Assembly (NCBI GenBank): GCA_018435125.1
Contig: JAHDNZ010000029.1
Span: forward strand, 3,735-67,734
Length of the DNA stretch: 64,000 nt
From: Bacillota bacterium
Lineage (GTDB): Bacteria; Bacillota; DTU065
Direction of reading: 5' to 3'
A program made the position numbers and the translations under genes. How positions within the stretch are numbered: position 1 is the first letter of the stretch; each line of letters begins with the position of its first letter. Shown one piece after another: positions 2,303 to 48,703 of the stretch. Below the pieces are notes generated by a model. The model was not told the DNA's origin. It worked only from the letters and a program-made list of their open reading frames with translations, and ran no database searches.

Positions 2303-2331
2303 TAATATCAGCCACCTATTATTTTGCTATC

Positions 2332-7745: not shown

Positions 7746-7748
7746 TTT

Positions 7749-9805: not shown

Positions 9806-9824
9806 AATAGCTATACCTATATTT

Positions 9825-9864
9825 AGCGAATAGATAACTAATACTTATCTATTCGCTTTTTTTA
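9825..9864 (+). terminator. rho-independent terminator
   Basis: 13-bp perfect stem AGCGAATAGATAA / TTATCTATTCGCT followed by T7. Confidence 0.8.
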
Positions 9865-11258: not shown

Positions 11259-11269
11259 ATGAAAGGAAA

Positions 11270-12334
11270 ATGAATATGAAAAAAAACCGTCTGTTTTTAT
11301 TTTATGTTCTAATTCTTAGTCTCTTGCTTTTAACAGGCTGTAAGCAAGAAGATATTAAGTTTGCCATCCCTGAAAGCAATGTTCCTACAATTACAGTACT
11401 TGCTTACCATCGCATTATAGATGGAGGGCCTTCTTTTATTGATGTTTCCACTTACATGTTTGATAGCCACCTTAACTGGTTAAAGGATAACGGTTATCAA
11501 GTGATTGACTTTGATAGTTTTATGGCTTTTCTGGCCGGAGAAAAAACTTTACCCGCTAAAGCAGTCCTAATTACCTTTGATGATGGCTATCAAGAAACCA
11601 TAACCAATGCCGCACCTATTTTAGAAAGGCATGGGCTGCCCGCCACACTTTTTATCTATTCACACCGTATTAAAGACTACTCTCATCCGGGTGGGCTTTC
11701 AGTTCAGGAATTAAAGCAACTGCAGCAAAAAGGCTGGTCTATTCAGGCCCACACCATTTCACATGCCGATCTCAGTCAATATGCCCCCAATAATAAAGCC
11801 GGTGCTTTAGCTGAAATGGTTGCCAATAAGGAACTGCTTGAAAGGCTACTTGAAAGACCGGTATCTGCTTTGGCTTATCCTTATGGTGCCTATACTAATG
11901 AGGTTGAAGCCTGGGCCAAGGAAGCAGGTTTTAGTGCATGCTTTTTAATTGAAGAAGGACCTAATACTTTTTCTCCCCATCCTTATCGCTTAAAAAGGCA
12001 TATGCTCTATGCTAAAGATACCCTCCAGGATTTTGCATATAAAGTCAGCAGTTCACCCTTAGAAGTTATTAAAACTATTCCCGCTCAAGCTCAGGTTATA
12101 AACTACAGACCTAATACCATTATTGTTGATGTAGACCTACCTACTGGCCTGGAGGTTAAAAAGGTCTTAGCTGATTTGGAAAGCGAAGAGCTCGATGCCA
12201 GATTTGATGTTCAAAAACAGCGTATAGTAGTTGAAACTCCATCAATCTCATATGGACACCACAACCTAACTGTTCGCTTGCTTGGTAGTGATTTGAGAAT
12301 GTATATCTATGGGTGGTCTTTTGTAATTCGTTAA
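11270..12334 (+). CDS. polysaccharide deacetylase (CE4, NodB homology) lipoprotein
   Basis: Lipobox LLLTGC. NodB motif ITFDDGYQET. 11 nt downstream of the esterase gene, so likely co-transcribed. Confidence 0.85.
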   Translation: MNMKKNRLFLFYVLILSLLLLTGCKQEDIKFAIPESNVPTITVLAYHRIIDGGPSFIDVSTYMFDSHLNWLKDNGYQVIDFDSFMAFLAGEKTLPAKAVLITFDDGYQETITNAAPILERHGLPATLFIYSHRIKDYSHPGGLSVQELKQLQQKGWSIQAHTISHADLSQYAPNNKAGALAEMVANKELLERLLERPVSALAYPYGAYTNEVEAWAKEAGFSACFLIEEGPNTFSPHPYRLKRHMLYAKDTLQDFAYKVSSSPLEVIKTIPAQAQVINYRPNTIIVDVDLPTGLEVKKVLADLESEELDARFDVQKQRIVVETPSISYGHHNLTVRLLGSDLRMYIYGWSFVIR

Positions 12335-12347
12335 GTAAAATACAATC

Positions 12348-12490
12348 CCCCCTCAAAGAACAGTTGTTTTGAGAGGTGCTTATCACCTAGAAAAAGCCCC
12401 GAAAGACTGATATGCCCCCTTATGATAAACAGTTTTGTTATTTTTACTGTCTACCACAAAGAGGGCATATCAGCTTGTCCTTTTGAGGGC
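12348..12490. terminator. convergent terminator region with nested, alternative palindromes
   Basis: CCCCTCAAA can pair with either TTTGAGG (12368) or TTTTGAGGGC (12481). A 12-bp stem CTGATATGCCC / GGGCATATCAG encloses 45 nt. Confidence 0.5.
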
Positions 12491-12497
12491 TGTTTTT

Positions 12498-14000
12498 TTA
12501 TTCCTTTGCAGCGAATCCACTACTTACTGGTTCTAAAGATGGTTCATATACTTTAGGATGGATTGGACCACGCCACTTTAGATCAATGGGGTTGCCATAG
12601 ATATCTAATAGCGGTCTGGGAGCCACTTTTTTGTAGGTTGAAAGCATAACAACCACAAAAATAACAAAACTGATACCCAAACCGATTAGATCGTTGGGTG
12701 TATTAGGTGAAAAGAAAGAAAGTAAAATCCAAGAACCAAATCCAATTAACGATGAAGCTGTAGCAGCTGGGGTATTGGCTTTTTTACTCCATATGCCAAA
12801 TACCAAAGGCACAAAGCAACCAACCAGTAAAAAGGCCCAAGACGAGACCATCAGATCATAGATATTTTGAAACCATAAAGCTGTGGCCAAAGATGCTAGA
12901 GTTATCCCCAGAGTTGCATAACGTGCTAAGACTAATTCTTGTTTGGGACTTAACTTTTTTATATGGGGAGCTATATTTCTGGTTATTATGCTTGCCGGTG
13001 CAAGTATGGCACTATCACAAGAAGACATTATGGCTGAAAGTAAGGCGCCCACAAATAAGGCTATTAATAAATTGGGTAAGTATTTCTGAGCTAAGACAAC
13101 CAGGATCATCTCTGAGTTTTGAATCTCCGGAACAACTAAGCGGCCAATAATTCCTAAAGTTACCGGAATTATACCAAGAAGAATATAGGCAACTCCGGAA
13201 ATATAAGATGCATTCTGAGCTGTGTTTTCATCTTTGCTAGATAAAGCTCGTTGCATTAAATCCTGACCAGGTATAGAGCCAAAGCCGACTATTATCCAAG
13301 CTTGCAAATAAAACAACCAGTCATTAAGACCTGCGTTTCTTGGAAAGAAATAAAACATCTCATGTGGTATTTTGGTCTCTAAAGTGCTAAGACCGCCGAT
13401 ATCATGCAAAACAATGGGAAACATTATAATAAGACCTAGAACTAATATTATCATCTGCACAAAATCCGTAATTGTTACTGCCCACATGCCACCTTGATAG
13501 GTATAAAACAACACCACCAAGGCTGATATTACTATTCCCCAGGTTGGAGAAAGGCCTGTAACTGAATGAACAATAAAACCAAGGGCAACAAGTTCAGCCG
13601 CTACCCAGCCCACAAATGCTGGAATCGTAATAATTGATGCTAGCAATTCATTTAATTTGCCATATTTAATTGCAAAAAAATCAGCAATAGTAAGCAATTT
13701 CATCCGTCTCATGGTTCTAACAAAGAAAAAACCACCCAGAATCAAGCACAGGCCAGCACCAAAGGGGTCGGCAATGGCCCCCATAAAACCATTATAATAT
13801 GATTCACCAGCAGCTCCCATTGAAGTACCGCCACCAAACCAAGTAGCAAAAAGTGTTGCTGTAGCTAAGCCTAAAGGTAGTCTCCTGCCGGCTACAATAA
13901 AGTCTTCCGAGCTGTTGATGTTTTTACTGGTTACATATCCTATGTAAAGCATTGCTAGCATGTATACTGCTATACCACCTATTACCCATGCATTGTTCAT
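12498..14000 (-). CDS. sodium:solute symporter family transporter
   Basis: 500 aa, about 13 TM helices, SSF (PutP/PanF-like) N-terminal signature. Confidence 0.85.
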   Translation of the reverse strand: MNNAWVIGGIAVYMLAMLYIGYVTSKNINSSEDFIVAGRRLPLGLATATLFATWFGGGTSMGAAGESYYNGFMGAIADPFGAGLCLILGGFFFVRTMRRMKLLTIADFFAIKYGKLNELLASIITIPAFVGWVAAELVALGFIVHSVTGLSPTWGIVISALVVLFYTYQGGMWAVTITDFVQMIILVLGLIIMFPIVLHDIGGLSTLETKIPHEMFYFFPRNAGLNDWLFYLQAWIIVGFGSIPGQDLMQRALSSKDENTAQNASYISGVAYILLGIIPVTLGIIGRLVVPEIQNSEMILVVLAQKYLPNLLIALFVGALLSAIMSSCDSAILAPASIITRNIAPHIKKLSPKQELVLARYATLGITLASLATALWFQNIYDLMVSSWAFLLVGCFVPLVFGIWSKKANTPAATASSLIGFGSWILLSFFSPNTPNDLIGLGISFVIFVVVMLSTYKKVAPRPLLDIYGNPIDLKWRGPIHPKVYEPSLEPVSSGFAAKE

Positions 14001-14168
14001 TAAAACGATCTTCCTCCTTTAACACTGCTAGAGATAAAAAGACACTACATTTACCCGATTTCGAGACCTTCTAAACCTAATAGCAATCTCCCTTTCTTAA
14101 ATAAAACCCATAAAGCACTAAACAATATGTCTTACTGCTAGAAGGCAGTAAATACTTTACGAGAACTG

Positions 14169-14197
14169 ATTATGAAGCAAAATTACCTAATAGTCAA
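14169..14197 (-). promoter_or_regulatory. sigmaA-type promoter for the SSF transporter (TTGACT-N17-CATAAT)
   Basis: Hexamers read directly from the sequence. About 150-nt leader before the GGAGG RBS. Confidence 0.5.
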
Positions 14198-14208
14198 CAC
14201 CTTAAATA

Positions 14209-14246
14209 ATAAAAAAAAATTAGACCAAGTTCAAACTTGGTCTAAA
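14209..14246 (-). terminator. rho-independent terminator after tcdA
   Basis: TTAGACCAAGTT-CAAA-CTTGGTCTAA hairpin followed by U9 on the minus strand. Confidence 0.8.
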
Positions 14247-14352
14247 ATCTAGCTCGCACTCACTCAGATACAAAAACAAACCTATTTGTAATAAAAGTTG
14301 AGGTGTCTTTTATAAGAAAATTTTCCCCAGCTTTAACTCCGAAGCTCAAGCG

Positions 14353-15054
14353 TCACTCATTTGCTAAGTCTCTCACAACTAAAGAAGCTAGAGCAAAGCC
14401 TGTAGCCGGAGGGACAAAGGCTGTAGAACCAATTAGGAGTTTACCTTCTATTGCAGTGGCCTTAACAGGTTTTTCCAGCGAATAGATAACTTTAAGCCCT
14501 TTTTCTATACCGTGTTCCCTAAGTCTTTTACGCATCACTTTAGCTAAAGGATCGGTGTTGGTGTCTGAGATATCACCACTGCGAATAAGGGTAGGGTCCA
14601 GTCTTCCTCCAGCTCCCATAGAAGAGACAATCCCAATGTGGTTTTGTAGACAGAAAACAATTAAAGCTGTTTTAGCCTCAATATCATCGATACAATCAAC
14701 CACATAGTCAGTATCAAAAATATAATGCTTTATGTTTAATGGTGTGAGAAATGCCTTTATAGCTTCTACCTTAGTCTTAGGTGCAGCATCTAGAAGTCGG
14801 TTTTTTAATGCTTGAACCTTGTCCTGGCCAATATTAGATCTTAAGGCTACTAATTGACGATTTAGATTAGTCTTATCAACTACATCACCATCTATTAATT
14901 TTAAAAAACCTATTCCTGAACGTGCTAAAGCCTCTGCCGCTGCACTGCCAACCCCTCCTAGGCCACATACAATAACCCTGCTTTGAGAGAGCCTTAAAAG
15001 GGCTTTTTCTCCCATAACAAGACTGGTCCTTGATAGATATTGATCTTGATTCAT
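14353..15054 (-). CDS. tcdA: tRNA threonylcarbamoyladenosine dehydratase (ThiF/MoeB E1-like)
   Basis: Rossmann motif VIVCGLGGVGS. Real start taken as MNQDQYLS. The ORF track's upstream TTG extension runs through a structured RNA region. Confidence 0.8.
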   Translation of the reverse strand: MNQDQYLSRTSLVMGEKALLRLSQSRVIVCGLGGVGSAAAEALARSGIGFLKLIDGDVVDKTNLNRQLVALRSNIGQDKVQALKNRLLDAAPKTKVEAIKAFLTPLNIKHYIFDTDYVVDCIDDIEAKTALIVFCLQNHIGIVSSMGAGGRLDPTLIRSGDISDTNTDPLAKVMRKRLREHGIEKGLKVIYSLEKPVKATAIEGKLLIGSTAFVPPATGFALASLVVRDLANE

Positions 15055-15100
15055 AGCAAGCACCGCCTTAAAATCCAATTCCTCAGCTAAAGACAGACAC

Positions 15101-15317
15101 AAAAAGGAGCCCCAATTGGCTCCCTTTCTTAGCAGGTCCCCGCCGTGCCGCTGGGGCTGAATGTTGATGAACCTGCTAAAGCAGGTGGGTGCCCTGTTTA
15201 CAGCTTTCGTAAATCCAATCAGGTCTTGCGGCCACTGCAAAACATCCGGACTCCCTTTCTAAGTGTGTTGGCTCATAACTTAATCAGCTTGACTACGAAC
15301 ACAGCAGGGTTTGTTGT
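15101..15317 (-). ncRNA. ssrS: candidate 6S RNA (ssrS/bsrA-like)
   Basis: GC-rich, structured, non-coding stretch between aspS and tcdA, where bsrA sits in Bacillus subtilis. sigmaA-like promoter TTGAAG-N17-TATTAT at 15324-15352. Intrinsic terminator GGAGCC-CCAATT-GGCTCC plus U5 at 15101-15123. Predicted length about 215 nt. Confidence 0.45.
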
Positions 15318-15374
15318 AGCTTTATAATAGCATAACTTGAGATTTTCTTCAACGGAATAGCAAATGTTGCCAAG

Positions 15375-17129
15375 CTATGACTTGACTACAGTTGAAGCGA
15401 TATGCAACTCCTTTAATTGTTTGGAACTTACCGTGGAAGGAGCCTCAGTAAGAAGGCAGATAGCTTTTTGAGTCTTGGGGAAGGCTATAACATCACGTAT
15501 GGATTCTGCCTTGGCCAACAGCCAGATCATGCGATCCAAACCAAAGGCAATGCCACCGTGGGGTGGAGGTCCAAACTTAAAAGCTTGCAGTAAGAAACCG
15601 AACTTTTCCTCAGCTTCTTCTTCTGATATCCCCAGTACTTTAAAGAGTTTTGTCTGTAAATTAGCATCATGGATTCTAATTGAACCACCGCCTAATTCTA
15701 CCCCATTTAATACTAAGTCATATGCTTTAGCTAGGGCGTTAGCGGGATCCTCGTCAAAATTTTCCTCTTTGGGAGCTGTAAAAGGATGATGAACTGCCAT
15801 ATAACGATTTTCATCTTTATCCCACTCTAATAGAGGGAAATCGACTACCCAAAGAAAATTCATCTTGTCTTTAGGAATTAGACCGAGGGTCTCACCTAAA
15901 TCTAGACGGAGTCTTCCTAAAACTGCAGCTACAGTCTCTTTTTGATCGGCCACGAGAAGAAGTAAATCTCCATTTTGGGCTTGTAACCTTTGAGTTATGT
16001 TAGCTATCTCTGTGTCCGTAAAGAATTTAGCAATTGGGCTTTTAATTTCATCTTTAATAAGCATCCAGGCCAGACCTTTTGCGCCTAGTTCTTGGGCCAG
16101 AGTAGTCAGGTCATCGAGTTGCTTTCTGGTATAATCAGCACAACCCTTAACGCAAATCCCTTTTACCTGTCCACCTTTTTTGATGGTTTCATTAAATACT
16201 TTAAACCCACAATCTGCTAGTAGATCTGTTAGGTCTACTAATTCCATACCAAAACGAGTATCCGGCTTGTCTGAACCATAGCGGTTCATGGCTTCTTGAT
16301 AGGTCATGCGTGGAAAGGGTGTATCGATTTTGATGGCATAAATTCTCTCAAAGAGATAAACAAACATTCTCTCTATCAATTGTTGAATATCCTGTTCTTC
16401 AACAAAGGACATCTCCATATCGATCTGGGTAAATTCCGGTTGCCTATCCTTGCGCAGATCCTCGTCCCGGAAGCATTTAACGATCTGGAAGTATTTTTCA
16501 AAACCGGAGACCATTAATAGCTGCTTAAAAAGCTGTGGTGATTGTGGCAGTGCAAAAAAAGTTCCAGGATTGACACGGCTTGGAACCAGATAGTCTCTAG
16601 CTCCTTCCGGTGTCGATTTGGTAAGCATAGGTGTTTCGACCTCTAAAAAACCTTCTTTATCGAGGAAATCTCTTACTGCTTTAGTCACCTGATGCCTTAA
16701 GATAAAGTTTTGCTGCAATTCCGGACGTCTTAAATCTAAATAACGGTATTTTAATCTAACCGCTTCATCGACATCACTTCTGGTATCCAGAGCAAAAGGC
16801 AAAGCCTGGCTTGGCGAGAGAATAGTTAGCTTTTGAGCTTTTACCTCGATCTCTCCTGTTTTAAGTTCATTGTTCTCCAAACCTTCGGGTCTAATTGATA
16901 CTTCACCTTGAATCTGCACACAAAACTCACTGCGAAGCTTTTCAGCCAAGTTAAAATTTTCTTTACTGGTATCAGGATCAAAGACAACTTGTACAAGACC
17001 GGAGCGATCTCTTAAATCAACAAAGATTAAGCCGCCATGATCACGGCGTCGATGGACCCAGCCACTTAAAATAACAACTTGACCCGCATCTTTTTTACTA
17101 AGTGATCCACAATCTCTATCCTTCATCAT
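15375..17129 (-). CDS. aspS: aspartate--tRNA ligase
   Basis: 584 aa class II aaRS with an OB anticodon-binding N-terminus. 4-nt overlap with hisS. Confidence 0.95.
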   Translation of the reverse strand: MMKDRDCGSLSKKDAGQVVILSGWVHRRRDHGGLIFVDLRDRSGLVQVVFDPDTSKENFNLAEKLRSEFCVQIQGEVSIRPEGLENNELKTGEIEVKAQKLTILSPSQALPFALDTRSDVDEAVRLKYRYLDLRRPELQQNFILRHQVTKAVRDFLDKEGFLEVETPMLTKSTPEGARDYLVPSRVNPGTFFALPQSPQLFKQLLMVSGFEKYFQIVKCFRDEDLRKDRQPEFTQIDMEMSFVEEQDIQQLIERMFVYLFERIYAIKIDTPFPRMTYQEAMNRYGSDKPDTRFGMELVDLTDLLADCGFKVFNETIKKGGQVKGICVKGCADYTRKQLDDLTTLAQELGAKGLAWMLIKDEIKSPIAKFFTDTEIANITQRLQAQNGDLLLLVADQKETVAAVLGRLRLDLGETLGLIPKDKMNFLWVVDFPLLEWDKDENRYMAVHHPFTAPKEENFDEDPANALAKAYDLVLNGVELGGGSIRIHDANLQTKLFKVLGISEEEAEEKFGFLLQAFKFGPPPHGGIAFGLDRMIWLLAKAESIRDVIAFPKTQKAICLLTEAPSTVSSKQLKELHIASTVVKS

Positions 17130-37272: not shown

Positions 37273-38340
37273 CTATTCACCTAACCTTTCTTTGGCGAGA
37301 TCTGTCTCTATCTTAGCCAGCAGAGATACCCCTACTTGACTTGGAGTTACTATGCTCTCACTTTTTTTTTCTAAAATAAAGCTATCACCATAAAGTTGGG
37401 AGAGCTTTGTTTCCGCCAAGTTCAAAGCCATTTGCAAAGCTTCTTCCTGGGTTCTTGTTAAAGTAAACTCCTTTAGTTCATCATACATGATTAAAGTTAT
37501 TTCGACAAACTGCCTCCTGTTCCCTGCCCAGCCAAATTTCTGCTCTTTCACATGCCACTTTCTTTCACCTACGGGTTTAAAACCAAAGCGCCACTCTTTT
37601 AAGCCAATTTTAACCAGTAATTCTTTATGCTTTTTACCGGTTGGTTCTAAAACACTTTCTTGTAAGGAAACTTCTTGTTCTATCTTGACTACTGTTTCTC
37701 CAATTACCTTTCCAGCAGCCAAAGGCTCTCCCTGAATTAAGAGTTGCCCTTTATACACTACATCGCCGGCATTAACTTGAGCCTGACCCAAATAAACATT
37801 TACATAGCGAACAATGCCACCTAATTTAGCCCTAACCGCTTCTTGAGGAATATTTAGTTGTTCCTTAGGTTTAACAATTATATCGATATTAAGCCTTACA
37901 CCTTCTTTTTTAAAATCAATCATACTAATTTCCGGAAAGGCCTGTTTTAGCTGTATTGATAACGGAAGAAAGTTACCCACTCGCTCTCCCGGTCCGACAT
38001 TGTTTTCCAGTAAATAATTATGCACTTTGTCCATTAAAACTTCATCATTACTTTTATAAACAAAGGTCCAGACCCGATTAGCCCAAAAAAAAGTAAGAAT
38101 GACACTAGTTAGAAACAGGGTGAGAAAAAAATATTTAAGAGGTCTGTAGGTTTGCATCAAGAGCGTAAATTCCAGCCCTTCTTTTGCAGCTAGGTCTTTT
38201 AACCTTTTAAGATCTTTGTACAAACATTTGCCGTAAAGAGCTTCACCATTACGGCTTAATTCAAAAAGCTGAATGTATTTTGCTTTAGAAAGAAACTTTT
38301 CTATGTTAGTTCCCGAAACCATAAAAACAGCTCTAGACAT
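37273..38340 (-). CDS. yqfD: sporulation protein YqfD
   Basis: YqfD-family N-terminal pattern. Sits in the conserved yqfC-yqfD-phoH neighbourhood. Confidence 0.75.
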   Translation of the reverse strand: MSRAVFMVSGTNIEKFLSKAKYIQLFELSRNGEALYGKCLYKDLKRLKDLAAKEGLEFTLLMQTYRPLKYFFLTLFLTSVILTFFWANRVWTFVYKSNDEVLMDKVHNYLLENNVGPGERVGNFLPLSIQLKQAFPEISMIDFKKEGVRLNIDIIVKPKEQLNIPQEAVRAKLGGIVRYVNVYLGQAQVNAGDVVYKGQLLIQGEPLAAGKVIGETVVKIEQEVSLQESVLEPTGKKHKELLVKIGLKEWRFGFKPVGERKWHVKEQKFGWAGNRRQFVEITLIMYDELKEFTLTRTQEEALQMALNLAETKLSQLYGDSFILEKKSESIVTPSQVGVSLLAKIETDLAKERLGE

Positions 38341-38608
38341 GGCCTATCACCTCAAATTGCTTAAGTTCTCCATAGACCTCTAAAGAATCAGGTAGCAGAA
38401 CATTTAACCGCAAATTAGCCCCAGTTAAAATAAGTTTCCCACTTTTTAGCTCTACAACAATACGCTCTTTTTCATATATTAAAAGCCGGTAAGGGTTATA
38501 GATTACTATACGTTTTTGCAGTGGATAATAAGCCACTTTCGGCTCTTTGCCAATTAGCTCAGATGGTAACTCCAGCTTTCTTACCATATTTTGCCAAATA
38601 GTTTGCAA
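38333..38608 (-). CDS. yqfC: sporulation protein YqfC
   Basis: 91 aa YqfC-like protein. TTG start with a GGGGGGA RBS. Confidence 0.7.
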   Translation of the reverse strand: MQTIWQNMVRKLELPSELIGKEPKVAYYPLQKRIVIYNPYRLLIYEKERIVVELKSGKLILTGANLRLNVLLPDSLEVYGELKQFEVIGHV

Positions 38609-38998
38609 GCTAATCCCCCCCTAGATTTTAATCTATTCTTTTGGTTTTAAGCTTAGAAGAAATACCCCACTCCCCCTTACTTATTACTACTAAAAGATAT
38701 GCAGCTTCTTGTGGTAAAGAAGTAGCACTTATTAGTAAACCTGTAAACAAGCTTTATTATCTTTTAGCATACTAAGAATTTATTAGCTTAGATCCCAAAG
38801 CAAACAGCTTATTATCATAAAAGTAAGTGTTCTTATAATACAGACCTGAGCCCAACCATCATTTAGGTTATTTTGATCTACACAAAACTTGAAACACGCT
38901 CATAAATTGGATACAAATTGTAGCCTAAGATGGGTGTGTGTATCATATCTGTTATCTAGTACAGAAATTAGATGCAGCTATCTTTCAGCAATGTCTGC

Positions 38999-39060
38999 AA
39001 AAAAAATCGGTTTCCGGCAGCTTTTCTTGCTGTTGGAAACCGATTAAATTTTGAACTTTT
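38999..39060. terminator. bidirectional intrinsic terminator-like hairpin
   Basis: A8, then AATCGGTTTCC...GGAAACCGATT (11-bp perfect stem with an inner GGCAGC/GCTGTT stem), then a T-rich tail. Confidence 0.6.
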
Positions 39061-39379
39061 TGTGACTCACCATCGAGCTCTAAAGCTGCATGGCCCATTT
39101 CATAAGCTAAACCAATCGCAGGTGACCGCTTCTTCTCATCTATAAATACCACTAGTAGGATCCCATTTAAGTATCATGTACTCGGCTTAATAGTTATATT
39201 TGTAGTGATTTTCTGTCACTCAGACGGAATAAAACTGATAACTAAGCTATTATTCTTTACAAAAATCAGATAAACAAAACCACTAGTATACCCCGCAATC
39301 CATTGGCAAAAAACTTATTTTTAGTAAAATTATATATCGTTACTTACCTATATATTTCAACCCCATATAATAAGCCAGA

Positions 39380-40288
39380 TTACATCAGTTCCACAGCTTT
39401 TCTCTCGCACTCTTTAGCTTCCATTAAAAGTTCTGCAATGACCTTTCTGTTTTTTTCTGCCGCTAAATCGGTGGATTTTTTTATTTCAAAGGCTTTATTC
39501 CAGTTTTCATATACGGTATTATATAGTTTTGCAAGTTCGGATAGGTTGTTCTTTTCAAAGAATTTCCTTGCATACCATTTCAGTGCGGCATAAGTACCAA
39601 GATAATATTCCATATTCCAGCAAGTGGCGTATCGGGTGTCATCCATTTCAAAAAAATGTGTTAGCACAGGATACACATCGAGACCTTTTATATTTTCACA
39701 CCATTCTTCGCCGTTTAAATGCGCTTTGGCCAGCTTTAATGTGTCTGCGATAATATCCTCATTCTTTTTAGCGTTTTTGTCTGTCAGGGTTATTACATTC
39801 AACATAGGCATTTCCCGTTTTCCCAAAAGTGCATAATCCATCTCCTCTGCAGCGCCTGTTATTGAGAGTGTGGAAAATTTCTGCGTCTTATCGTCATAAC
39901 CTGTAAGAAGTCCCCATTCCAAAACCCCGATGTCCCATGCTATAACAGGAATACCGTTGTCAATGCTCTGTGTAATTTTGGGCATAACATCAAGCCGTGC
40001 CTGTTCCATCACATTATCCGGTTGCCAGTAGCAACCGGCATATGTTGTTTCCAACCCGCCGTTTGCAATCCAGGTCGGTTGCCTGTCAAATTGCCATATA
40101 CTCATAGCGCTCGGGCAAAGCTCTGGGTTTACCCACATGCGGAATGCAAAGCCGCTGGTGGCGATAATGTCCTCTGAAAGCTCGCTCCAGGGACTGTTTT
40201 TAACTGCCGCTGACAGTGACTTTGCAAAAGAGAACAGATAGCCGGTTGAATCATAAACGCCATCCCAGGTAATGTTTAATTTATTCAC
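39380..40288 (-). CDS. hypothetical protein, 302 aa, Trp-rich (last gene of the island operon)
   Basis: Real coding density. 12 nt downstream of the helicase stop. No catalytic motif recognised. Possible weak resemblance to BtrH-N/DUF4872-type papain-like folds, but no Cys at the expected position. Confidence 0.6.
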   Translation of the reverse strand: MNKLNITWDGVYDSTGYLFSFAKSLSAAVKNSPWSELSEDIIATSGFAFRMWVNPELCPSAMSIWQFDRQPTWIANGGLETTYAGCYWQPDNVMEQARLDVMPKITQSIDNGIPVIAWDIGVLEWGLLTGYDDKTQKFSTLSITGAAEEMDYALLGKREMPMLNVITLTDKNAKKNEDIIADTLKLAKAHLNGEEWCENIKGLDVYPVLTHFFEMDDTRYATCWNMEYYLGTYAALKWYARKFFEKNNLSELAKLYNTVYENWNKAFEIKKSTDLAAEKNRKVIAELLMEAKECERKAVELM

Positions 40289-40300
40289 TTTGTTCCCTCC

Positions 40301-42469
40301 CTAAAAAATATGACTTAGCCCATTGTAATTGAAGTTAATAGGTTTTACTCCGTTTACAAAACGGATATAATACGTCTTCGTTTTTTCATCAACCGATTCT
40401 ATAACACCCTCGCCGAAAACCTTATGCCGGATTTGGTCGCTCACTTTATAAACCACATCGGTTTTTTTGTTGAATTTTTCAACTTGCAACGTCGCTTCTA
40501 TTTTGATTTCATCAGGCAAATGTCCTATCATCTTCAGCAAGTTCTTGTCAATATCAAAGATAAAACGGGAGGGTACTTTTGAATATCCTTTTACACCAAA
40601 ACCTTCGCTTTCTGTTAGGTACAAGTTTTTCTTAGCCCTTGTTATACCCACAAAACAAAGCCTGCGTTCTTCCTCTAAAGCGTCATTTTTTCTTTCTTCA
40701 AGGCTTCGTGCGGAGGGGAAAATACCTTCTGTCAGTCCCACAAGAAAAACATGGTCAAATTCCAGTCCTTTGGCGGTATGTACCGTCATGATCTTAACAC
40801 AGTCACTTTTATCTTCCCTGTCGCTGTCACGCAAAAGTGTGATATTCTGCAAAAAAGCCGATAAAGATAAAGGCTCGCCATATTCGGTTTCCTGGGTGAC
40901 AATACTTCGCAGCAGTTCTGAGACATTATCAAGCCGCTCAATATCACCGCTTTCACGGATATACATTTCATAGTCTGTGTCCTTAATTACCTTTTGCAAA
41001 AGCTCCGAAACAGAAAGAGTATTTAACTGTTCCTTAAGTTTCTCAATAGCTCCTATGAATTCTTTTGCCTTGCATCCCTTAAACGATTCTAAGTGGTAAC
41101 ATTCTTTTAGTGCATTATAAAGTGAGATGCTGTTGTTCTTAGCATAATTTTTCACAATTTCCAGTTTCATCTTGCCGATTTTGCGTCTTGGGGTGTTAAT
41201 AATCCGCATAAAGGACAAATCGTCCTCGCTATTATCTACCAACCTCATATAGGAAAGCACATCTTTTATTTCGGCCCGCTCGTAAAACCCGATCCCGCCA
41301 TAGACCACATAGGGGATATTATTTATCAAAAAGCCTTGCTCCACAAAGCGGGAAACATAATTAGACCGATAAAGCACCGCAAAATCCGAATATCTGCCGC
41401 CAGTTTCTTTGTTTTTTATAATCTTGTCGCAGATATATTTGATTTCTTCTTTATCGTTTTTACCATGAAAATACTCTGCCGTCTGTCCGCCATCTTTCTG
41501 GGTGAACAAATTCTTTTTAACACGGTTATTGTTCTTGTCAATTAGAGAATTGGCAACATTTAAAATCGGGGAGGTGCTGCGATAATTTTCGTTCATTATC
41601 ATATCTTTGCAAGATGTGTTTAATTTGTTTTTAAAACATGGATCATCTAACCATTTATCAAAATCTACCAGCACACTCATATTTGTACCGCGCCACTCAT
41701 AGATATTTTGATCGGGGTCTCCCACAACAAAAAGATTCCTGTTGATTTCAGTCAGTCTTCGAATCAGTTTGAATTCCTTTGCGGTAATGTCCTGAAACTC
41801 GTCCACCATGATATAGTGAAGTCTTTTTTGCCATTTTGCCAAGATATCGGGAAATTTTCCGAACAAATAAATTGTAAAGTTAATCAGATCAAAAAAGTCC
41901 AGCCCAAAGTATTTACGCTGCTTTTTTACGTATCTGAAAATAATCTCCTCCGACTTTTTATCCGATGTTAAAGTATTGTAATCAAAGGACGGATCCGAAA
42001 GATATTCAACATATGTAATAAGATTTTTATAATAGCGGATTTGGTCTATCATAAATTTAAAGCTAGCAGTATCCATTTTGATGTTCATTTCATCATAGAC
42101 TTCTTCCAAAATATTTTTTTGGTCAATATTATCCAGAACAATGAAGTTTTCAGGGTAAAAAAGCTTTGAAATATCTTCGCGTAGCACGCGAGTGCAGAAA
42201 GCATGGAGTGTCGCCACAAAGGAGGTATCAAATTCTTCTCCCAGCATCGTTTTGATCCGCTTTTTCATCTCGTTTGCAGCCTTGTTTGTGAATGTGATAC
42301 AAAGTATATTAGAAGGTGAAATGCCAAGCTCATTAACCAGATAAGCATAACGATGGGTCAGAGCTTTGGTCTTGCCGACACCAGCTCCCGCTATAACCCT
42401 TACATAGCCTTCGGTCGAGGTAACTGCTTGTGCCTGCGCTTCATTTAGGCCATCTAAAATATCCTGCAT
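40301..42469 (-). CDS. UvrD/PcrA/Rep-family SF1 DNA helicase with C-terminal Tudor-like domain (YjcD-like)
   Basis: Motif I AGAGVGKT, motif II VDEFQD, motif VI VGITRAK. C-terminal HKVFGEGVIESV...YYIRFVNG resembles the PcrA/UvrD C-terminal RNAP-binding Tudor domain. Start taken at MQDILDGLNEAQ (ATG 42469). The 26-codon upstream extension in the ORF track overlaps the AraC gene. Confidence 0.85.
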   Translation of the reverse strand: MQDILDGLNEAQAQAVTSTEGYVRVIAGAGVGKTKALTHRYAYLVNELGISPSNILCITFTNKAANEMKKRIKTMLGEEFDTSFVATLHAFCTRVLREDISKLFYPENFIVLDNIDQKNILEEVYDEMNIKMDTASFKFMIDQIRYYKNLITYVEYLSDPSFDYNTLTSDKKSEEIIFRYVKKQRKYFGLDFFDLINFTIYLFGKFPDILAKWQKRLHYIMVDEFQDITAKEFKLIRRLTEINRNLFVVGDPDQNIYEWRGTNMSVLVDFDKWLDDPCFKNKLNTSCKDMIMNENYRSTSPILNVANSLIDKNNNRVKKNLFTQKDGGQTAEYFHGKNDKEEIKYICDKIIKNKETGGRYSDFAVLYRSNYVSRFVEQGFLINNIPYVVYGGIGFYERAEIKDVLSYMRLVDNSEDDLSFMRIINTPRRKIGKMKLEIVKNYAKNNSISLYNALKECYHLESFKGCKAKEFIGAIEKLKEQLNTLSVSELLQKVIKDTDYEMYIRESGDIERLDNVSELLRSIVTQETEYGEPLSLSAFLQNITLLRDSDREDKSDCVKIMTVHTAKGLEFDHVFLVGLTEGIFPSARSLEERKNDALEEERRLCFVGITRAKKNLYLTESEGFGVKGYSKVPSRFIFDIDKNLLKMIGHLPDEIKIEATLQVEKFNKKTDVVYKVSDQIRHKVFGEGVIESVDEKTKTYYIRFVNGVKPINFNYNGLSHIF

Positions 42470-42473
42470 ATCA

Positions 42474-43310
42474 TTACTTCCTTTTAAGCGGAATATAAAT
42501 ATCCTCTGAAAATATCCTGCTTTCCTCAATATAACATTCGAATTCATAACCGCTCGTACGATTATACTCGCTGTGAGGAAGCCATACCGTATTGATGTAT
42601 TCCCATGTTTTATGAATGTTATTTACAAAATCCCCTTGTGTTGTTATCGGTGTGGCAAACACTGCATACAAACCACCGGGGATCTTCAATTCCTGCGTAC
42701 CGCCGAGATCACCGTCTGCATCTTCCTTTTTTATTCCGATAAAATAGTTTATTTTTTGGTTGACATTGTCCCAAATGCAAACACCGTAATCTCTGACGAC
42801 TTTTCCGCCGGATAGTTTAAGCGACATCTTTTTAGCATTATATTTATTCCAAAATTTCGGCGTATAATCTTCATCACTTTTAAACACAGTTAAATTGAAC
42901 GGTTTGAGGACTATTTTTTTCGGTGTTACTGAAAAAGGGGCGGTTCTAAAGGTGAAACGCTCGTATAGCTTTAAGCTGTTTTCCGCCGATTTGTATTCGG
43001 TAGGTAATATATGATGTTCTGATTTAAAGGCTCTTAGAAAGTTTTCTTTAGAATTAAAGCCATACAGGAAAGCCACTTGCGAAATATACTCATTGCCTTT
43101 GATTATTTCCTTAGCAATTTCTGAAAGCCTGCGTTTTCTTATATAATCGGCAGGAGTAAGACCTGTAAATTCTTTGAATACACGTATAAAGTGATAGAGC
43201 GAATAACCACTGATTTTGGCACAAGCAGCAACATCAATATCATATTCTAAATTTGCTTCTATGTAATCAACCGCTTTTGTAATATGTTCGTTGTAGTCCA
43301 TTTGCATCAC
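42474..43310 (-). CDS. AraC-family transcriptional regulator with C-terminal GyrI-like effector-binding domain
   Basis: N-terminal dual HTH AraC pattern and a GyrI-like C-terminus. Stop is 4 nt before the helicase ATG. Confidence 0.8.
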   Translation of the reverse strand: MMQMDYNEHITKAVDYIEANLEYDIDVAACAKISGYSLYHFIRVFKEFTGLTPADYIRKRRLSEIAKEIIKGNEYISQVAFLYGFNSKENFLRAFKSEHHILPTEYKSAENSLKLYERFTFRTAPFSVTPKKIVLKPFNLTVFKSDEDYTPKFWNKYNAKKMSLKLSGGKVVRDYGVCIWDNVNQKINYFIGIKKEDADGDLGGTQELKIPGGLYAVFATPITTQGDFVNNIHKTWEYINTVWLPHSEYNRTSGYEFECYIEESRIFSEDIYIPLKRK

Positions 43311-43357
43311 CCATTATATCTGATTTATTGAGTTAATAATTGATAAAAATTGCGAAG

Positions 43358-44091
43358 TCATATTTGCCCGAATCCCTTCAGGTACAATATATTTAATATA
43401 ACGCCATTTGCTTTCTGCCAATTTTTGCTGATTGCCCATTCTTTAGGATAACCTTTCCAGCCCCTCGGAATGTTCCATGATCCGTCTTCAAGCTGTGATT
43501 TTACAATATACCCGCACTCTAACTCGGCAATTTCGCTAATTGCGATTAGATTAATTATATCATTAGCGAAGTCACCGCCTAGCAAAGCAGTAACGGCTTT
43601 TTTTGCTATACAGCAACCGAGTTTATAAAGCTTGCTGTATTTTAAGCAAGCGGATGATAAATCCTGTGAGGCAGACGATTGGGTTGTAGTCATTGTAACA
43701 GGTGCTATCGCTTTCGGTGTGCCACCAAGGAGCATGAGGATAATCGTTGTTGCTGTAAAAGGTGTTATACCAGAAATGTCCGTTAAAATCCTGTCCGCTT
43801 GCCAGATAACACAAAACTCCCTTAATAATGGTGTGGGAGTTGTCGGTAAAGTTAATTTCCCGCAGAAATTCGGCTGCTGCCCACGTCTTAAATAGGTGAT
43901 GAGTTTGGATTCCACGTATCCGGCTCCAGCGCATGACCGAAGCCAACATCCTCGTTTTGATAGGCGCCAAGCGTAGTTAATACAGCCTCTTTGCTGCCGT
44001 TTTCAAAGTGATACTACCAACGTGCCAAATCCAGCAGTCGTGCGTTGCGATAGATAAAGGTATAGGCTTTTTCAAAAGCAAAGCTACTCAT
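43358..44091 (-). pseudogene. decayed gene for a prenyltransferase/terpene-cyclase-repeat (alpha/alpha-toroid) protein
   Basis: Three overlapping frames (ORFs 43358-43915 and 43623-43970, plus an ATG at 44091 with an in-frame TAG at 44014-44016). Repeat signatures [17 protein letters not shown] and SQLEDGSWNIPRGW. Confidence 0.6.
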
Positions 44092-44693
44092 TGCACTATA
44101 ACCTCTTAAACTTGCATTTTACTTTTGCAGGCAAGTTTACCCTTGTATTCGTCCGTATGGCCGATGATTATGCCTCTGCAATACCAAAACCAACCGCGCT
44201 CTCCAATCACCATCGTTGGTAGATCCTGCATTTGCTACAACATACTTGTGACCCTATCAATTGTCCTTAAGAACACTCTCACATTTAAGTTTAAGGGTTA
44301 CCCCTTTTAATACTTCTGACAACTTTGGAGGGTCAGATCACATTTATATAAAGTACCTCATTTGGAGTTAATGTTCAGCACTGAGCACTTTACCAGCTCT
44401 TATCTTTGGCAATGTCTCGAGATACCATGAATCCAACTCATTTACTCTAGATCCTGTTAAATCTCTCATTCAAACAATAATCCGATTATATTCATTACTA
44501 AGGAACATAAAATAGAATACAAAACCTTGAACCGACCTTCTTTTTATGAGTAAAGTCTTTTGGCTTGCAGAGCACTTCATTTTATTAGTTGTAAGTTAGT
44601 GATATCTTTTACTTTCCCTCCTTAACAGTTATAATTGCTTTCTTATAATAATCTTACCATTGTAAACTTTGAGCTCTTTTTTAACCTTTGAAA

Positions 44694-44745
44694 TGTAAAA
44701 GGCCGTGGGAAACCGAAATCTCCTACGGCCAATTGTTATTTATAA
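44694..44745 (-). terminator. terminator after yqfB-like gene
   Basis: GGCCGTgggaaaccgaaatctcctACGGCC hairpin with U-rich flanks. Confidence 0.55.
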
Positions 44746-44792
44746 CAACCTTATTAACTTGTGGCTAATTACGGCGGTTTTAAAGATCCTTC

Positions 44793-45299: not shown

Positions 45300-46286
45300 T
45301 TATTTGGTTTCTTCGGTCTGGGTCTTTTCTGTGGAGCGAGCTAGAGACTCCCGCATCTTAGTATCGGAAAGAATATTCTGCATGTTGTAATAATCCATAA
45401 CCCCAAGCTTACCCTCTTTAAAAGCCACGGCAATAGCTTCAGGGATCTTGGCTTCGGCCTCAACAACTTTAGCCCTCATCTCCTGAACTCTAGCTTTCAT
45501 TTCCTGCTCCAAAGCTTGGGCTGCAAAACGTCTTTCAGCGGCCTTAGCCTGAGCGATGTTTTTATCGGCTTCAGCTTGATCAATTGATAGCTGAGCTCCG
45601 ATGTTTTTACCTACATCGATATCGGCAATATCAATTGACAGGATTTCAAAGGCCGTACCAGAGTCTAGACTCTTTGAAAGAACAGTCTTGGAGATGCTAT
45701 CCGGGTTTTCCAATACCTCTTCGTGGCTTTTAGATGAGCCTACCGTAGTGACAATGCCTTCGCCTACACGAGCGATAATAGTTTCCTCACCGGCACCGCC
45801 TACCAGCCTGTCGATATTAGCTCTTACCGTCACTCTGGCTTTAACCTTGACTTCAATACCGTTTTTAGCAACGGCAGCTATAATAGGTGTCTCAATAACT
45901 TTGGGCTGAACACTCATCTGGACTGCTTCAAGTACGTTACGCCCAGCGAGATCAATTGCTGTACAACGTTCAAAGGTCATGCTTATATCAGCACGTCTGG
46001 CCGCAATTAAAGCATCGATAACTCTATCGACATGGCCTCCCGCCAGATAATGTGCTTCGAGCTGATCAAGCTGTACTTCAGAAAGTCCGCCTTTTCTAGC
46101 TTTAATTAACGGCAAAACAATGACTGCCGGAGGCACTCTTCTTAATCTCATCCCTATTAAATAACTTAGCGGAACCGGTACATGGGCAGCAATAGCTGAA
46201 ATCCAAAGACCTACCGGTACTAAAGATAAAACAATTAAAAACACAAACAGAATAATAACTAGAACAACAACACCTAATACTCCCAT
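45300..46286 (-). CDS. floA: flotillin-like protein FloA (SPFH domain)
   Basis: 328 aa with an N-terminal TM and SPFH region. YqfA homolog. Confidence 0.9.
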
Positions 46287-46297
46287 TTTCTCTCCTC

Positions 46298-47587
46298 CTA
46301 TTCGCTTTCCTCAACGACAATACGATTGCCCTTAACCTCAATGACTTTAATATTGACATCTCGCCCCAAAAACTCTCCTGCAGTCTGGGCACTGTAGCGT
46401 TTGCCTTCAACTTCAATAAGACCCGAAGGACGCATTACGGTTGCGGTAACACCATTTTTGCCTTCTAAATCTTTTAATTTATCCTCAGCTACACTAAATC
46501 CTTTGCTTTCTTCCAAACTGGTCTCTAAAACCAGCTTTTTAAAAAGAGGCGCTTTTTTTAGTCGCTTCCAGAATATTTTCAAAAACAAAGCGGTTAAAGC
46601 TATAGCTGCAATTAAAACCCAAACTGCCTGGGTTAGGTTTTTGAAACTTAAAATAATACTGGTTAAAAGACCTGCTATACCTAAAAGACCAACAATGCCA
46701 AACCCGGGAATAACAAAGATCTCCAGACCTAAAAAGATTAGCCCTGCTAAAAACAGTACAATATGCTCAAGCCCGGCAAGGCCACTGAGGTACCTCCCGC
46801 CGAAAAATAAAGTCAAACTCACGATACCGACTGTACCGGCAGCACCCCAACCCAGGGTAAAAAACTCCAAGATGATACCTAAAAATCCAATGGTTAAAAG
46901 TAAGGAACTGACAATCGGATCGGTTAAAAAGCGAGCAAACTTCTCTGCTCCGGATGGCTCTTGATCTATAATATCCTCATGGGCAACCTCTTTTAGCTCT
47001 AGCAGTTCAGGCAGCGTATTGATTGTACCATCCGAGATTTTTAATTCTAGGGCCTCTATGGCCGTTAAATTAAGGATCTTGCCTTTTTCATTAATTCCCG
47101 GAATCTCAACATCACTGTCTACCATAGCCTCTGCTATTCTGCCATCTTTCCCTCGTGATTCGGCAGTGGCCTTAAACTCTCTTCTAACCGCAGATATTAT
47201 TTTTTCTTCTTTGGGTCTTGTCTCGGCCGAACCGATACTACTGCCGCTTACCATATAAAGTTCTTCGCCTGAAAGAGCTATCAAAGCCCCTGCTGACCAG
47301 GCCCTACCGGTAACATAGGTCACGTTTGGAACCCTAGCTTGCATAATAGTATCTTTAATCTCGAGTGCGGCATCAACCAAACCGCCCAGAGTATCGATCT
47401 CTATTACGACTAAATCCGCCCGGTTTCTTTCGGCATTTCTCATAGCTCTTTTTACAAATCCCGCTACACCATAATCGATGGTTCCTTTAATTGGAATTAG
47501 GTAAACATCTGCTGAAGCTGAAAAAACACTGGCCAGACACAACAGCAAAATAAAAATTAATAGCGGTTTTGTCTTAACTTTCACCAT
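46298..47587 (-). CDS. nfeD: NfeD-family membrane protease (YqeZ-like)
   Basis: ClpP-class protease domain, TM bundle and a C-terminal OB fold. ATG overlaps the anti-sigma stop (ATGGTGA). Confidence 0.85.
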
Positions 47588-48156
47588 TTTTCACCTCCTA
47601 TGATTAAACTCCAAATGGCCTGAAAAAAGTTACCTAGACGTTGCCAAATACTTCTTTTGTTGATCATAGCTGATACTTGACCATCTATAGAGGTTACATT
47701 GCCTTTGATCTCCCCTTGTACATAGACATCCCCACCTACAACTGTTAAGTTGCCGGGAAGACTCTCACCGTCGACAATGATATTCTTGCCTCTGGAATGG
47801 ATGGCTACATCATCTCCAATTCTTTCACAGGGTATACTTCTAGGTACAATATAAGCAATCGTTAACATTAACATTATAGCTGCAGCCAAAGAGTAGTATT
47901 TACGCAGACGCTTTTTCCTCCATTTGGAGTCTTTGGCGATCTCTTTTTTGATCCTAAGCTTTAATAAATCTGTCGGTTCCACTACTAGATTTTCCATATT
48001 TTCGGTAATAAAAAACAGTTCTTCTGCTTCTTTATTACATTTTGGGCAGGAGATTAAATGAGCTTTGATCTCTCTGTATTCTAGCGGTGGCAAAAGACCA
48101 TCAATGTAATCGTCAAGTTTTGAGCGTACATGCTCACACTCACTCACCAAATTCAC
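47581..48156 (-). CDS. anti-sigma factor (RsiW-like, zinc-binding N-domain)
   Basis: Zinc-binding HLISCPKC motif. Single TM helix. Beta-rich extracytoplasmic C-domain. Confidence 0.75.
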   Translation of the reverse strand: MNLVSECEHVRSKLDDYIDGLLPPLEYREIKAHLISCPKCNKEAEELFFITENMENLVVEPTDLLKLRIKKEIAKDSKWRKKRLRKYYSLAAAIMLMLTIAYIVPRSIPCERIGDDVAIHSRGKNIIVDGESLPGNLTVVGGDVYVQGEIKGNVTSIDGQVSAMINKRSIWQRLGNFFQAIWSLIIGGEKW

Positions 48157-48703
48157 CTTCTTTTTTATTGAAAAGGTAATCTTTCAATAACCACCTCGCT
48201 CGATGTAGCTTGGTTTTAATTGTCCCTAGTGGCTCTTCAAGCACGGTTGCTATCTCTTCGTATTTTAATCCTTCAAGATAACGCAAGAGTATTACCAGCC
48301 GGTATTTGGCCGGTAATACTGTAAGGGCTTGGGTTAACTCTCGGCTCGTTTCCTTATCTAGAAGCGCTTCTTGAGGATCGGCAAAGACATTTTGCGTTAA
48401 TAAAGACAGTTCCGTATCTGAATCGGAAAAAGCAACTTTCTTACTCTTACGTATGTTATCAATACACAAATTGCTAGCAATTTTTAATATCCAATTACCA
48501 AACGGATATGCAGGATTGTATTTATCAAGAGAACGATAAGCTCTTAAAAAAGTATCCTGAGTCAGATCCTCAGCTAACATAGGATCTCTTAACATCCTCA
48601 AAATTAAGCTATAGACCTTAGTTGAATACCTTAGCACAATATCATCGAAGGAATTTTTATTGCCCTTTAGTGTCATTTTAACCAGTTCCTGATCACTAAA
48701 CAT
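48140..48703 (-). CDS. ECF RNA polymerase sigma factor (sigmaW-like)
   Basis: Sigma-70 regions 2 and 4. Preceded by a TGAAAC-N16-CGTA promoter. Confidence 0.85.
   Translation of the reverse strand: MFSDQELVKMTLKGNKNSFDDIVLRYSTKVYSLILRMLRDPMLAEDLTQDTFLRAYRSLDKYNPAYPFGNWILKIASNLCIDNIRKSKKVAFSDSDTELSLLTQNVFADPQEALLDKETSRELTQALTVLPAKYRLVILLRYLEGLKYEEIATVLEEPLGTIKTKLHRARWLLKDYLFNKKEGEFGE

Follow-up and report, generated by a model that had tools for sequence, protein, structure and literature searches.

An AraC/GyrI-led operon with a PcrA-like helicase and a member of an unannotated protein family in Bacillota: a possible small-molecule-inducible stress or resistance module

Results

Genes between yqfB and yqfC

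A 64-kb stretch of DNA from a Bacillota bacterium (hereafter the window, to which all coordinates refer unless another locus is named) carries, between a gene in the position of yqfB and the yqfC gene, a segment (38,609-44,792) that we call the island. It harbours a three-gene operon that encodes, in the order of transcription, an AraC/GyrI-type regulator, a UvrD/PcrA-like helicase and a 302-aa protein, the open reading frame (ORF) of which is labelled X302 (Table 1). Every gene within 34-48 kb is located on the minus strand, and the island is embedded in the order nfeD-floA-yqfB-like ... yqfC-yqfD-phoH-pgpH-ybeY-dgkA-cdd. Exactly 4 nt (TGAT) separate the regulator stop from the helicase start, and exactly 12 nt (GGAGGGAACAAA), which represent a good Shine-Dalgarno sequence, lie between the helicase stop and the GTG start of X302. 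A hairpin followed by T8 on the 3' side of X302 (visible on the plus strand as an A8 run at 38997-39010), which is kept in the sister lineage L100, looks like the terminator of the operon. These genes and spacers, together with a pseudogene, two ORF-free flanks of ~0.7 kb and the surrounding gene order, had been described in an earlier note on this DNA and are all confirmed by our analysis.

The regulator and X302 form the conserved unit

In a set of 80 species-representative X302 loci, to which all neighbourhood counts refer, an AraC/GyrI orthologue (52-74% identity) adjoins the X302 gene in 64 cases, 62 of them upstream and on the same strand, whereas a helicase orthologue (62-84% identity) is present in only five. 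The core is hence a two-gene cassette of regulator and X302, of which the three-gene operon of the window is a minority elaboration, and the earlier description of a sensor that is combined with a dedicated helicase and a partner hence covers only the less common architecture. The only other recurrent neighbour that emerged from neighbour clustering is a sporadic ABC transporter (17/80). The complete three-gene set is found in the distant taxa Eubacteriales (L021), Lachnospiraceae (L028) and Haloplasmataceae (L049), with helicases that are 77-84% identical to that of the window. The gene order varies: L049 has its helicase gene downstream of X302, and L055 and L061 contain an additional gene.

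The X302 family is large, with 618 homologues at 52-73% identity from Clostridia, Lachnospiraceae, Oscillospiraceae, Acholeplasma, Haloplasmataceae, Gorillibacterium, Limnochordia and Halanaerobiales, and wherever a source gives one of them a name, that name is "hypothetical". No description of the family was found in the searched literature, and no member was found in IMG/VR, the INPHARED phages or the PLSDB plasmids.

Two side observations concern individual loci. The extra gene of L055 (~2400-3240) and L061 (2732-3688), which encodes ~286-319 aa and lies between regulator and helicase, has no Pfam match and contains repeats of the "DGSWG/DGLWDWG" type, suggestive of an alpha/alpha-toroid. 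In locus L010, a 1013-aa gene that runs off the locus end (1-425) and shows a weak match to Pfam RdRP (PF05183) is located a few genes upstream of the AraC/GyrI-X302 pair, and a TnpV gene is found downstream.

The regulator and its putative operator

The regulator comprises two helix-turn-helix (HTH) motifs, plus a GyrI-like/Cass2 effector-binding domain at its C-terminus (Pfam, NCBIfam), and aligns to STM3175 (7r3w) over both domains (E 2.7e-9). It shares the two-domain architecture of AraC HTH and GyrI-like domain with Rob of E. coli and with STM3175/YgiV of Salmonella and E. coli, but is not an orthologue of Rob, as it scores only 76.8 bits with the NCBIfam RobA_TF model, far below the cut-off of 380. 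In addition, Rob and YgiV come without an X302 domain, whereas the regulator type of the window is consistently paired, and sometimes fused, with such a domain and has a Firmicute and Mollicute distribution. The resistance that the AraC/GyrI protein YgiV confers is due to the trapping of albicidin (PMC10414762), and YgiV thereby provides a precedent that proteins of this kind can both regulate and sequester an antibiotic. Albicidin is one example among the many planar ligands that GyrI-like domains bind (PMC10414762), and the earlier statement that these domains sense gyrase poisons and DNA-damaging drugs is hence too narrow.

When the DNA upstream of the regulator genes was aligned, a nearly invariant GCAATTTTTATCAA(T) box emerged (consensus GCAATTTTTATCAATc.T), followed at a fixed distance of 21 nt by a (tg)nTATaaT -10 element. 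With at most one mismatch, the box is present at 57 of the 80 X302 loci, compared with 1 of 80 control loci, which have a similar overall length and came from a scan yielding housekeeping-type PcrA (34-48% identity). The same box precedes the AraC gene of L184, which has regulator and helicase and no X302, and a second copy is found directly upstream of X302 in L055 and L061. Its layout, GCAA-TTTTTAT-CAA(T), consists of an A-site-like GCAA, a 7-bp spacing and a B-site-like CAA(T), and the box overlaps the -35 position. The Rob box is bound by one Rob monomer and is composed of an A site GCAC, 7 bp and a B site CAAA overlapping the -35 element (PMC9178005), so that both share a GCA(C/A)-N7-CAA(A/T) layout with a class II position. 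That the regulator acts as an autoregulated, ligand-responsive class II activator is therefore a prediction well supported by the sequence. For an operon of closely spaced genes in the same orientation with an AraC/GyrI gene at its head, a ligand-induced module, as had been suggested before, is the natural reading, and the conserved robbox-like putative operator strengthens it.

Predicted fold and conserved residues of X302

In line with the earlier impression of a protein without recognisable motif, neither Pfam nor NCBIfam, PADLOC or PHROGs yielded a match for X302, a sequence search of the PDB gave nothing meaningful, and with a threshold as loose as E<=10 Pfam BtrH_N (PF14399)/DUF4872 still matched none of 40 X302 family members. 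A confident AlphaFold2 model, for which 40 homologues were used (predicted local distance difference test, pLDDT, 94.6; predicted template modelling score, pTM, 0.92) points to a fold of the BtrH/CtaG/CcbD type, with a papain-like N-lobe and a helical C-lobe. The top Foldseek matches of the model are three BtrH-type transacylase families (TM ~0.5), and its closest structural relatives are all enzymes, namely CtaG, CcbD, AziU3 and C39/papain peptidases.

X302 shares this bipartite fold with the BtrH/CtaG/CcbD/AziU3 transacylases at ~10% sequence identity, but differs from them in several respects. CtaG employs Cys11, His128 and Asp144 as catalytic residues (PMC12865890) and CcbD uses Cys19 (PDB 9dks title), whereas in X302 the first Cys comes only after residue 57 and the first His only after residue 189, so that a Cys-His dyad at the canonical positions is precluded. 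BtrH/CtaG-like transacylases further require an acyl or peptidyl carrier protein (ACP/PCP), yet no carrier-protein or biosynthetic genes recur beside X302; instead, the X302 domain is found fused to regulators. The position at which an H-aromatic-x-x-x-x-G-Y-D motif would carry its His would be occupied by a near-invariant E/D124, located before a "WGLLTGYD" strand. Residues common to fused and free forms of the domain are G46-x-A-F, mostly C-P-S, W118, E/D124, G-Y-D132, G156, mostly H190, G202, Y228 and E295.

A precedent for the loss of catalysis in this fold is the C39-like domain (CLD) of HlyB-type ABC transporters, which has a papain/C39 fold, has lost the catalytic Cys and binds its substrate rather than cleaving it. 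Both 3zua and HlyB are among the Foldseek matches of X302. The CLD is, however, a single lobe of ~140 aa inside a transporter, whereas X302 has an extra helical lobe and a regulatory context, and the match is much weaker than that to CtaG.

X302-like domains in signalling proteins

A profile search over 1.84 billion representative proteins yielded 567 X302-like clusters (50% identity), among which full-length X302-like domains (E 1e-53 to 1e-104) are fused to several types of signalling proteins. Links between regulator and X302 of the Rosetta-stone type are provided by fusions to an AraC HTH plus GyrI-like domain (P0244, P0249) and to a GyrI-like domain alone (P0387). In P0277 and P0288 an X302 domain takes the place of the GyrI-like domain at the C-terminus of an AraC HTH, in P0310, P0320, P0343 and P0360 it is C-terminal in WYL/WCX regulators, and in P0363, P0366, P0370 and P0383 it forms a C-terminal extension of extracytoplasmic function (ECF) sigma factors. 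Lastly, 1-7 tandem copies follow BlaR1-type M56 transducers (P0269, P0285, P0307, P0337, P0378). Tandem arrays of 3-7 X302-like domains occur in the giant proteins P0285 (2590 aa), P0307 (2501 aa), P0351 (2969 aa), P0337 and P0378; the N-terminal M56 transducer was detected in the four that were scanned with Pfam (all except P0351), and weak Pfam BtrH_N matches are confined to other repeats within the giant M56 proteins.

In BlaR1, the antibiotic-binding sensor domain sits after the M56 transducer, and the X302 domains occupy the same position. The attachment to five unrelated signalling scaffolds (AraC, GyrI-like, WYL, ECF sigma and BlaR1-type M56) argues that the X302 domain is a ligand-binding input domain. 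GyrI-like and TipAS domains likewise exist both inside regulators and as free binding proteins, and TipAS beside TipAL illustrates how one drug-binding domain can serve as effector domain of a transcription factor and as stand-alone, autoinduced binding protein. By analogy to TipAL/TipAS and BmrR, X302-like domains are either fused to regulators or found alone, downstream of a putatively autoregulated activator; the systems differ in that TipAL/TipAS and BmrR have other folds and another DNA-binding family (MerR), and ligand binding by X302 would be a matter of that analogy.

The helicase as optional cargo

Walker A, DEFQD and other superfamily 1 (SF1) motifs are readable in the helicase sequence. 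The protein is collinear with residues 7-692 of PcrA from G. stearothermophilus (1pjr), including the start of the C-terminal Tudor region, in which "KVGDRANHRKWGIGTVVSV" aligns with "KVSDQIRHKVFGEGVIESV" of PcrA. The earlier assignment as an SF1 helicase with PcrA-type Tudor domain hence agrees with the UvrD-helicase and UvrD_C matches and with this alignment, and the Tudor-like C-terminus would be compatible with binding to RNA polymerase (RNAP). Since its score with the PcrA equivalog model TIGR01073 (624.2 bits) stays below the cut-off of 911.2, we classify the helicase as a paralogue and not as the housekeeping SF1 helicase PcrA of Bacillota. It belongs to a large orthologue family of its own (~722 aa, 60-95% identity) that is found in accessory contexts, also with AraC/GyrI and no X302 (L184), with a WYL regulator (L103) or alone (L185, L186), and is therefore optional cargo of the cassette. 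A metagenome scan with the helicase was dominated by the generic NKAANEMK pattern and recovered only housekeeping-type PcrA of 34-48% identity.

In two unrelated contexts, L006-L008 (~9000-16700) and L103 (~2300-14100), the helicase gene is surrounded by recurring, poorly annotated genes, including a WYL/WCX regulator, DUF3795, DUF3788, DUF6144, a radical SAM protein, a small GyrI-like protein, an H2TH (Fpg/Nei-like) protein and several ORFs without Pfam match; this set may represent a larger stress or damage-response island. The sole Rfam signal in the island, a sub-threshold match to n00280 ("C. difficile sRNA included into helicase gene"), lies inside the helicase ORF and is probably due to conservation of the coding sequence and not to an RNA gene.

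Age and origin of the island

In the sister lineage (L100-L102) the operon is found at the same locus, with a helicase that is 95% identical. Synonymous divergence (dS) between the two lineages amounts to 0.22-0.26 for the three genes and 0.18-0.38 for the flanking core genes, and the ratio of nonsynonymous to synonymous divergence (dN/dS) is 0.09-0.17 across the three genes (regulator 0.17, helicase 0.09). From the shared locus and the equal dS we conclude that the segment was already present in the common ancestor, and from the low dN/dS that it has been kept by selection; a recent strain-specific insertion was rejected, as the segment is common to the lineage at dS ~0.23 and under purifying selection.

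The guanine plus cytosine (GC) content of the island (38.3%) is 1.9 points lower than that of the window (40.2%), which places it ~2 standard deviations (0.96 points each) below segments of the same size, at the 10th percentile. The "visibly lower GC" of the earlier note was thus found, albeit weakly, but the deficit sits in the non-coding flanks (34% and 36%), whereas the genes (36.7-42.4%) fall into the range of host genes. A faint signature of foreign origin may be seen in the codon usage, as helicase and X302 surpass all other long ORFs of the window in the GC content at third codon positions (GC3; 0.41-0.42), at an ordinary overall GC content. For the insertion suggested in the earlier note, the usual marks were not encountered: we found no empty yqfB/yqfC junction, no flanking (att-like) direct repeats above chance, no tRNA gene in the window and, in profile searches with Pfam and NCBIfam, no integrase or recombinase match among the ORFs of the segment. 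When YqfC and ribosomal protein S21 served as queries for exact-protein look-ups, all records belonged to the same species and came from fermentation and digester metagenomes; taken together, such look-ups yielded this species and a single sister lineage, each with the island in place, and a tblastn search with FloA, the YqfB-like protein, YqfC and YqfD against all fetched loci gave no further lineage.

The neighbourhood of the operon contains decayed genes. The pseudogene upstream of the regulator, which is disrupted by an in-frame TAG and by frameshifts and has lost ~190 bp internally, is homologous to intact ORFs of ~308 aa in L073 (4991-5917) and L068 (~2994-3940), and most of it (~790 bp) is deleted in L100. 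Inside the upstream flank, a 22-aa remnant of an S66 protein (LD-carboxypeptidase/MccF-like; ERGWFWYCRGIIIGHTDEYKGK) is 64% identical (E 5e-6) to the S66 protein of L006, and in L006-L008, the closest three-gene relatives, an intact S66 gene is located directly upstream of the regulator. Both pseudogene and remnant may be decayed former cargo of the same acquired segment. Since the cassette occupies unrelated genomic contexts in other taxa and these two remains lie nearby, a horizontal origin is favoured, and the operon was probably acquired horizontally and is now chromosomally fixed.

The ~308-aa family has no match in Pfam or PHROGs and may be another occasional partner of the cassette. In L073, the intact gene lies directly upstream of X302 and neither regulator nor operator box is present there; in L068, a partial regulator match and an operator box both accompany it. 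A common fourth-gene family was rejected, as the ~319-aa extra gene of L055/L061 has no significant similarity to the pseudogene family.

Further features of the island and the window

The upstream flank is ~93% conserved with L100. Relative to the same lineage, the X302-proximal part of the downstream flank is indel-rich, and the ~300 bp beside yqfC are highly conserved and presumably represent the native upstream region of yqfC. A 55-aa ORF in the downstream flank was rejected as a gene, as its indels versus L100 are not multiples of three. Elsewhere in the window, a 6S (SsrS) RNA gene is the sole Rfam match above threshold. The genes for an ECF-type sigma factor and a zf-HC2 anti-sigma factor lie between rpsU and nfeD; the latter overlaps nfeD by 7 nt and may hence be co-transcribed with the nfeD-floA-yqfB block.

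Table 1. Positions of the island genes and of neighbouring features in the 64-kb window.
Feature	Position	Strand	Remarks
6S (SsrS) RNA gene	15133-15313	-	Rfam RF00013, 71 bits (gathering score 46.4)
yqfC	38333-38608	-	then yqfD, phoH, pgpH
Downstream flank, 771 bp	38609-39379	-	no credible ORF; 34% GC
Terminator-like hairpin	38997-39045	-	17-nt arms, 7-nt loop, then T8; inverted-repeat search
X302, 302 aa	39380-40288	-	GTG start; stand-alone member of an unannotated domain family
UvrD/PcrA-like helicase, 722 aa	40301-42469	-	from ATG at 42469; Pfam UvrD-helicase, UvrD_C
Sub-threshold Rfam n00280 match	40604-40699	-	37.5 bits (threshold 65.2); inside helicase ORF
AraC/GyrI regulator, 277 aa	42474-43307	-	Pfam HTH_18, HTH_AraC, GyrI-like, Cass2
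TATAAT -10 hexamer of the putative operon promoter	43313-43318	-	from position and consensus match only
Putative operator GCAATTTTTATCAA	43340-43353	-	robbox-like
Box-containing stretch, putative operator			GCAATTTTTATCAAT; includes GCAA and CAAT
Pseudogene, ~308-aa family	~43358-44092	-	
Upstream flank, 700 bp	44093-44792	-	no long ORF; 36% GC
S66 remnant, 22 aa	44136-44201	-	inside upstream flank
yqfB-position gene, 165 aa	44793-45290	-	
floA	45300-46286	-	
nfeD	46298-47587	-	
zf-HC2 anti-sigma gene	47581-48156	-	
ECF-type sigma factor gene	48140-48703	-	

Discussion

From our point of view, the operon can tentatively be regarded as a small-molecule-inducible stress or resistance operon, in which X302 would serve as a ligand-binding module and the helicase as optional cargo; we put the probability of this reading at roughly 0.45. 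The regulator would sit as a monomer on the robbox-like GCAATTTTTATCAA(T) element that overlaps the -35 position of its own promoter, as suggested by its architecture and by the conservation of the operator. A planar or aromatic xenobiotic or antibiotic bound in the GyrI-like domain would then cause class II activation of the regulator's own operon, which is the best supported step. X302 itself would not be a biosynthetic transacylase but a stand-alone copy of a ligand-binding input domain, as its predicted fold, the lost dyad and the fusions indicate. Produced from the same transcript, it would bind the ligand of the regulator or a related one and could sequester the inducer, sense it together with the regulator or modulate the latter, for which TipAS beside TipAL and the trapping of albicidin by YgiV are precedents; this step is moderately supported and the enzyme alternative discussed below remains. 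The weakest and speculative step concerns the minority version with helicase, which would be expressed from the same promoter and, with its Tudor-type tail, might clear protein-DNA or RNAP roadblocks caused by the inducer.

Several points weigh against this reading, starting with the fact that every functional step of the mechanism is inferred. The exact box is present only once in the window (43340-43353), so that other members of a regulon are not indicated, and helicase orthologues are also found without the regulator, which bears on the proposed role of the helicase. Furthermore, enzyme domains fused to regulators do exist, as in Ada, PutA and BirA. Judged from motif and topology, not from a residue-level superposition, S20 at the N-terminus of the first helix and E124 would occupy the canonical catalytic positions, and an active site that has moved elsewhere could be made up of H190 and the well-conserved C58-P-S60 motif. 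X302 could hence be an active enzyme with a non-canonical site (e.g., Cys58/His190 or Ser20/Glu124) that hydrolyses, acylates or in some other way modifies the compound sensed by the regulator, the pair then consisting of a sensor and an antibiotic-inactivating enzyme. Close family members show strong conservation of C58-P-S60, E124 and H190, which distant members mostly share, the closest structural relatives are all enzymes, and pairs of a regulator and a resistance enzyme are common. This alternative is, however, doubtful, though by no means negligible: besides the absence of the canonical Cys and His, whole sub-groups (ECF-sigma-fused and WYL-fused) have D/H/G/N instead of C58 and E instead of H190, no carrier-protein, nonribosomal peptide synthetase (NRPS) or acyl-donor genes recur nearby, and five signalling scaffolds and tandem arrays on BlaR1-type transducers are the habit of an input domain and not of a detoxifying enzyme.

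Two further readings give the helicase a central role. The tight operon with its 4-nt and 12-nt spacers, the recurrence of the three-gene set in L021, L028 and L049 with closely similar helicases (77-84% identity), and helicase orthologues beside WYL regulators, in one locus near an H2TH (Fpg/Nei-like) gene, would fit a dedicated ligand-induced DNA-repair machine with X302 as an accessory subunit of the helicase. As 75 of the 80 X302 loci lack the helicase, the helicase also occurs without X302, and the order varies up to an extra gene and a second box in L055 and L061, an obligate complex of the two is disfavoured, and we consider this machine rather improbable. An anti-phage defence system composed of the helicase and an unknown effector is very improbable. 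It would account for the strong matches that PADLOC reports between the helicase and both GajB and a DRT-associated helicase model, and for the WYL regulators, which control some defence islands, that adjoin the helicase in some loci. The GajB matches (up to 329 bits) nevertheless appear to reflect the generic UvrD fold, as the same protein reaches 624 bits with PcrA, and Gabija was rejected because no GajA (OLD-family ATPase/TOPRIM nuclease) is adjacent and the neighbouring regulator, X302 and pseudogene have no PADLOC match. DRT was likewise rejected, since neither the helicase nor its neighbours contain a reverse transcriptase domain and only the helicase part of PDLC03802 matches. In addition, the conserved partner of X302 is a regulator of the xenobiotic type and not a nuclease or NTPase, and the family was not found in the phage, viral and plasmid collections named above. 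Of the earlier proposal of a ligand-induced repair or an uncharacterised defence module, the ligand-induced part hence stands, whereas for defence no known system in PADLOC fits; that no named system could be assigned is borne out, as PADLOC gives only generic UvrD-type helicase matches. As to origin, an old core feature of the lineage between yqfB and yqfC, with no island at all, would agree with the shared locus and core-like dS in two lineages (0.22-0.26 versus 0.18-0.38), with gene GC inside the host range and with the lack of att-like repeats, a tRNA gene and integrase or recombinase matches among the segment ORFs. It appears improbable, given the unrelated contexts at 52-84% protein identity across Clostridia, Acholeplasma/Haloplasmataceae, Gorillibacterium, Limnochordia and Halanaerobiales, neighbouring genes that are decaying and in one case further deleted in the sister lineage, the top GC3 of helicase and X302, and the contiguity of yqfB and yqfC in Bacillus subtilis, which is textbook synteny.

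Within the reading as a small-molecule-inducible operon, one could speculate about the ligand. The X302-like domain might be a widespread, hitherto overlooked bacterial sensor domain for antibiotics or peptides, namely a catalytically dead descendant of BtrH/CtaG-type acyl/peptidyl transferases that has kept the recognition of an aromatic acyl or oligoamide moiety. The operon might then be dedicated to resistance against an aromatic oligoamide (albicidin, cystobactamid or closthioamide type) that targets gyrase or DNA, with regulator and X302 trapping the drug and the helicase removing poisoned nucleoprotein complexes. In this specific form the proposal is a long shot.

Overall, AraC/GyrI regulators are known as drug sensors, and a cassette with a xenobiotic-responsive regulator is a known kind of arrangement. 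New is X302, a large unannotated family with a predicted transacylase fold that lacks the canonical dyad and would serve as an input domain across bacterial signalling proteins. The link to the helicase is less general but gives a hint of an inducer that causes DNA damage or stalled transcription. The conserved 14-nt box provides an immediate experimental handle. If X302 is a ligand-sensing domain, it would constitute a new input domain for the BlaR1 and ECF-sigma signalling families, and the identity of its ligand would explain to what hundreds of orphan regulators respond in Clostridia from gut and digesters.

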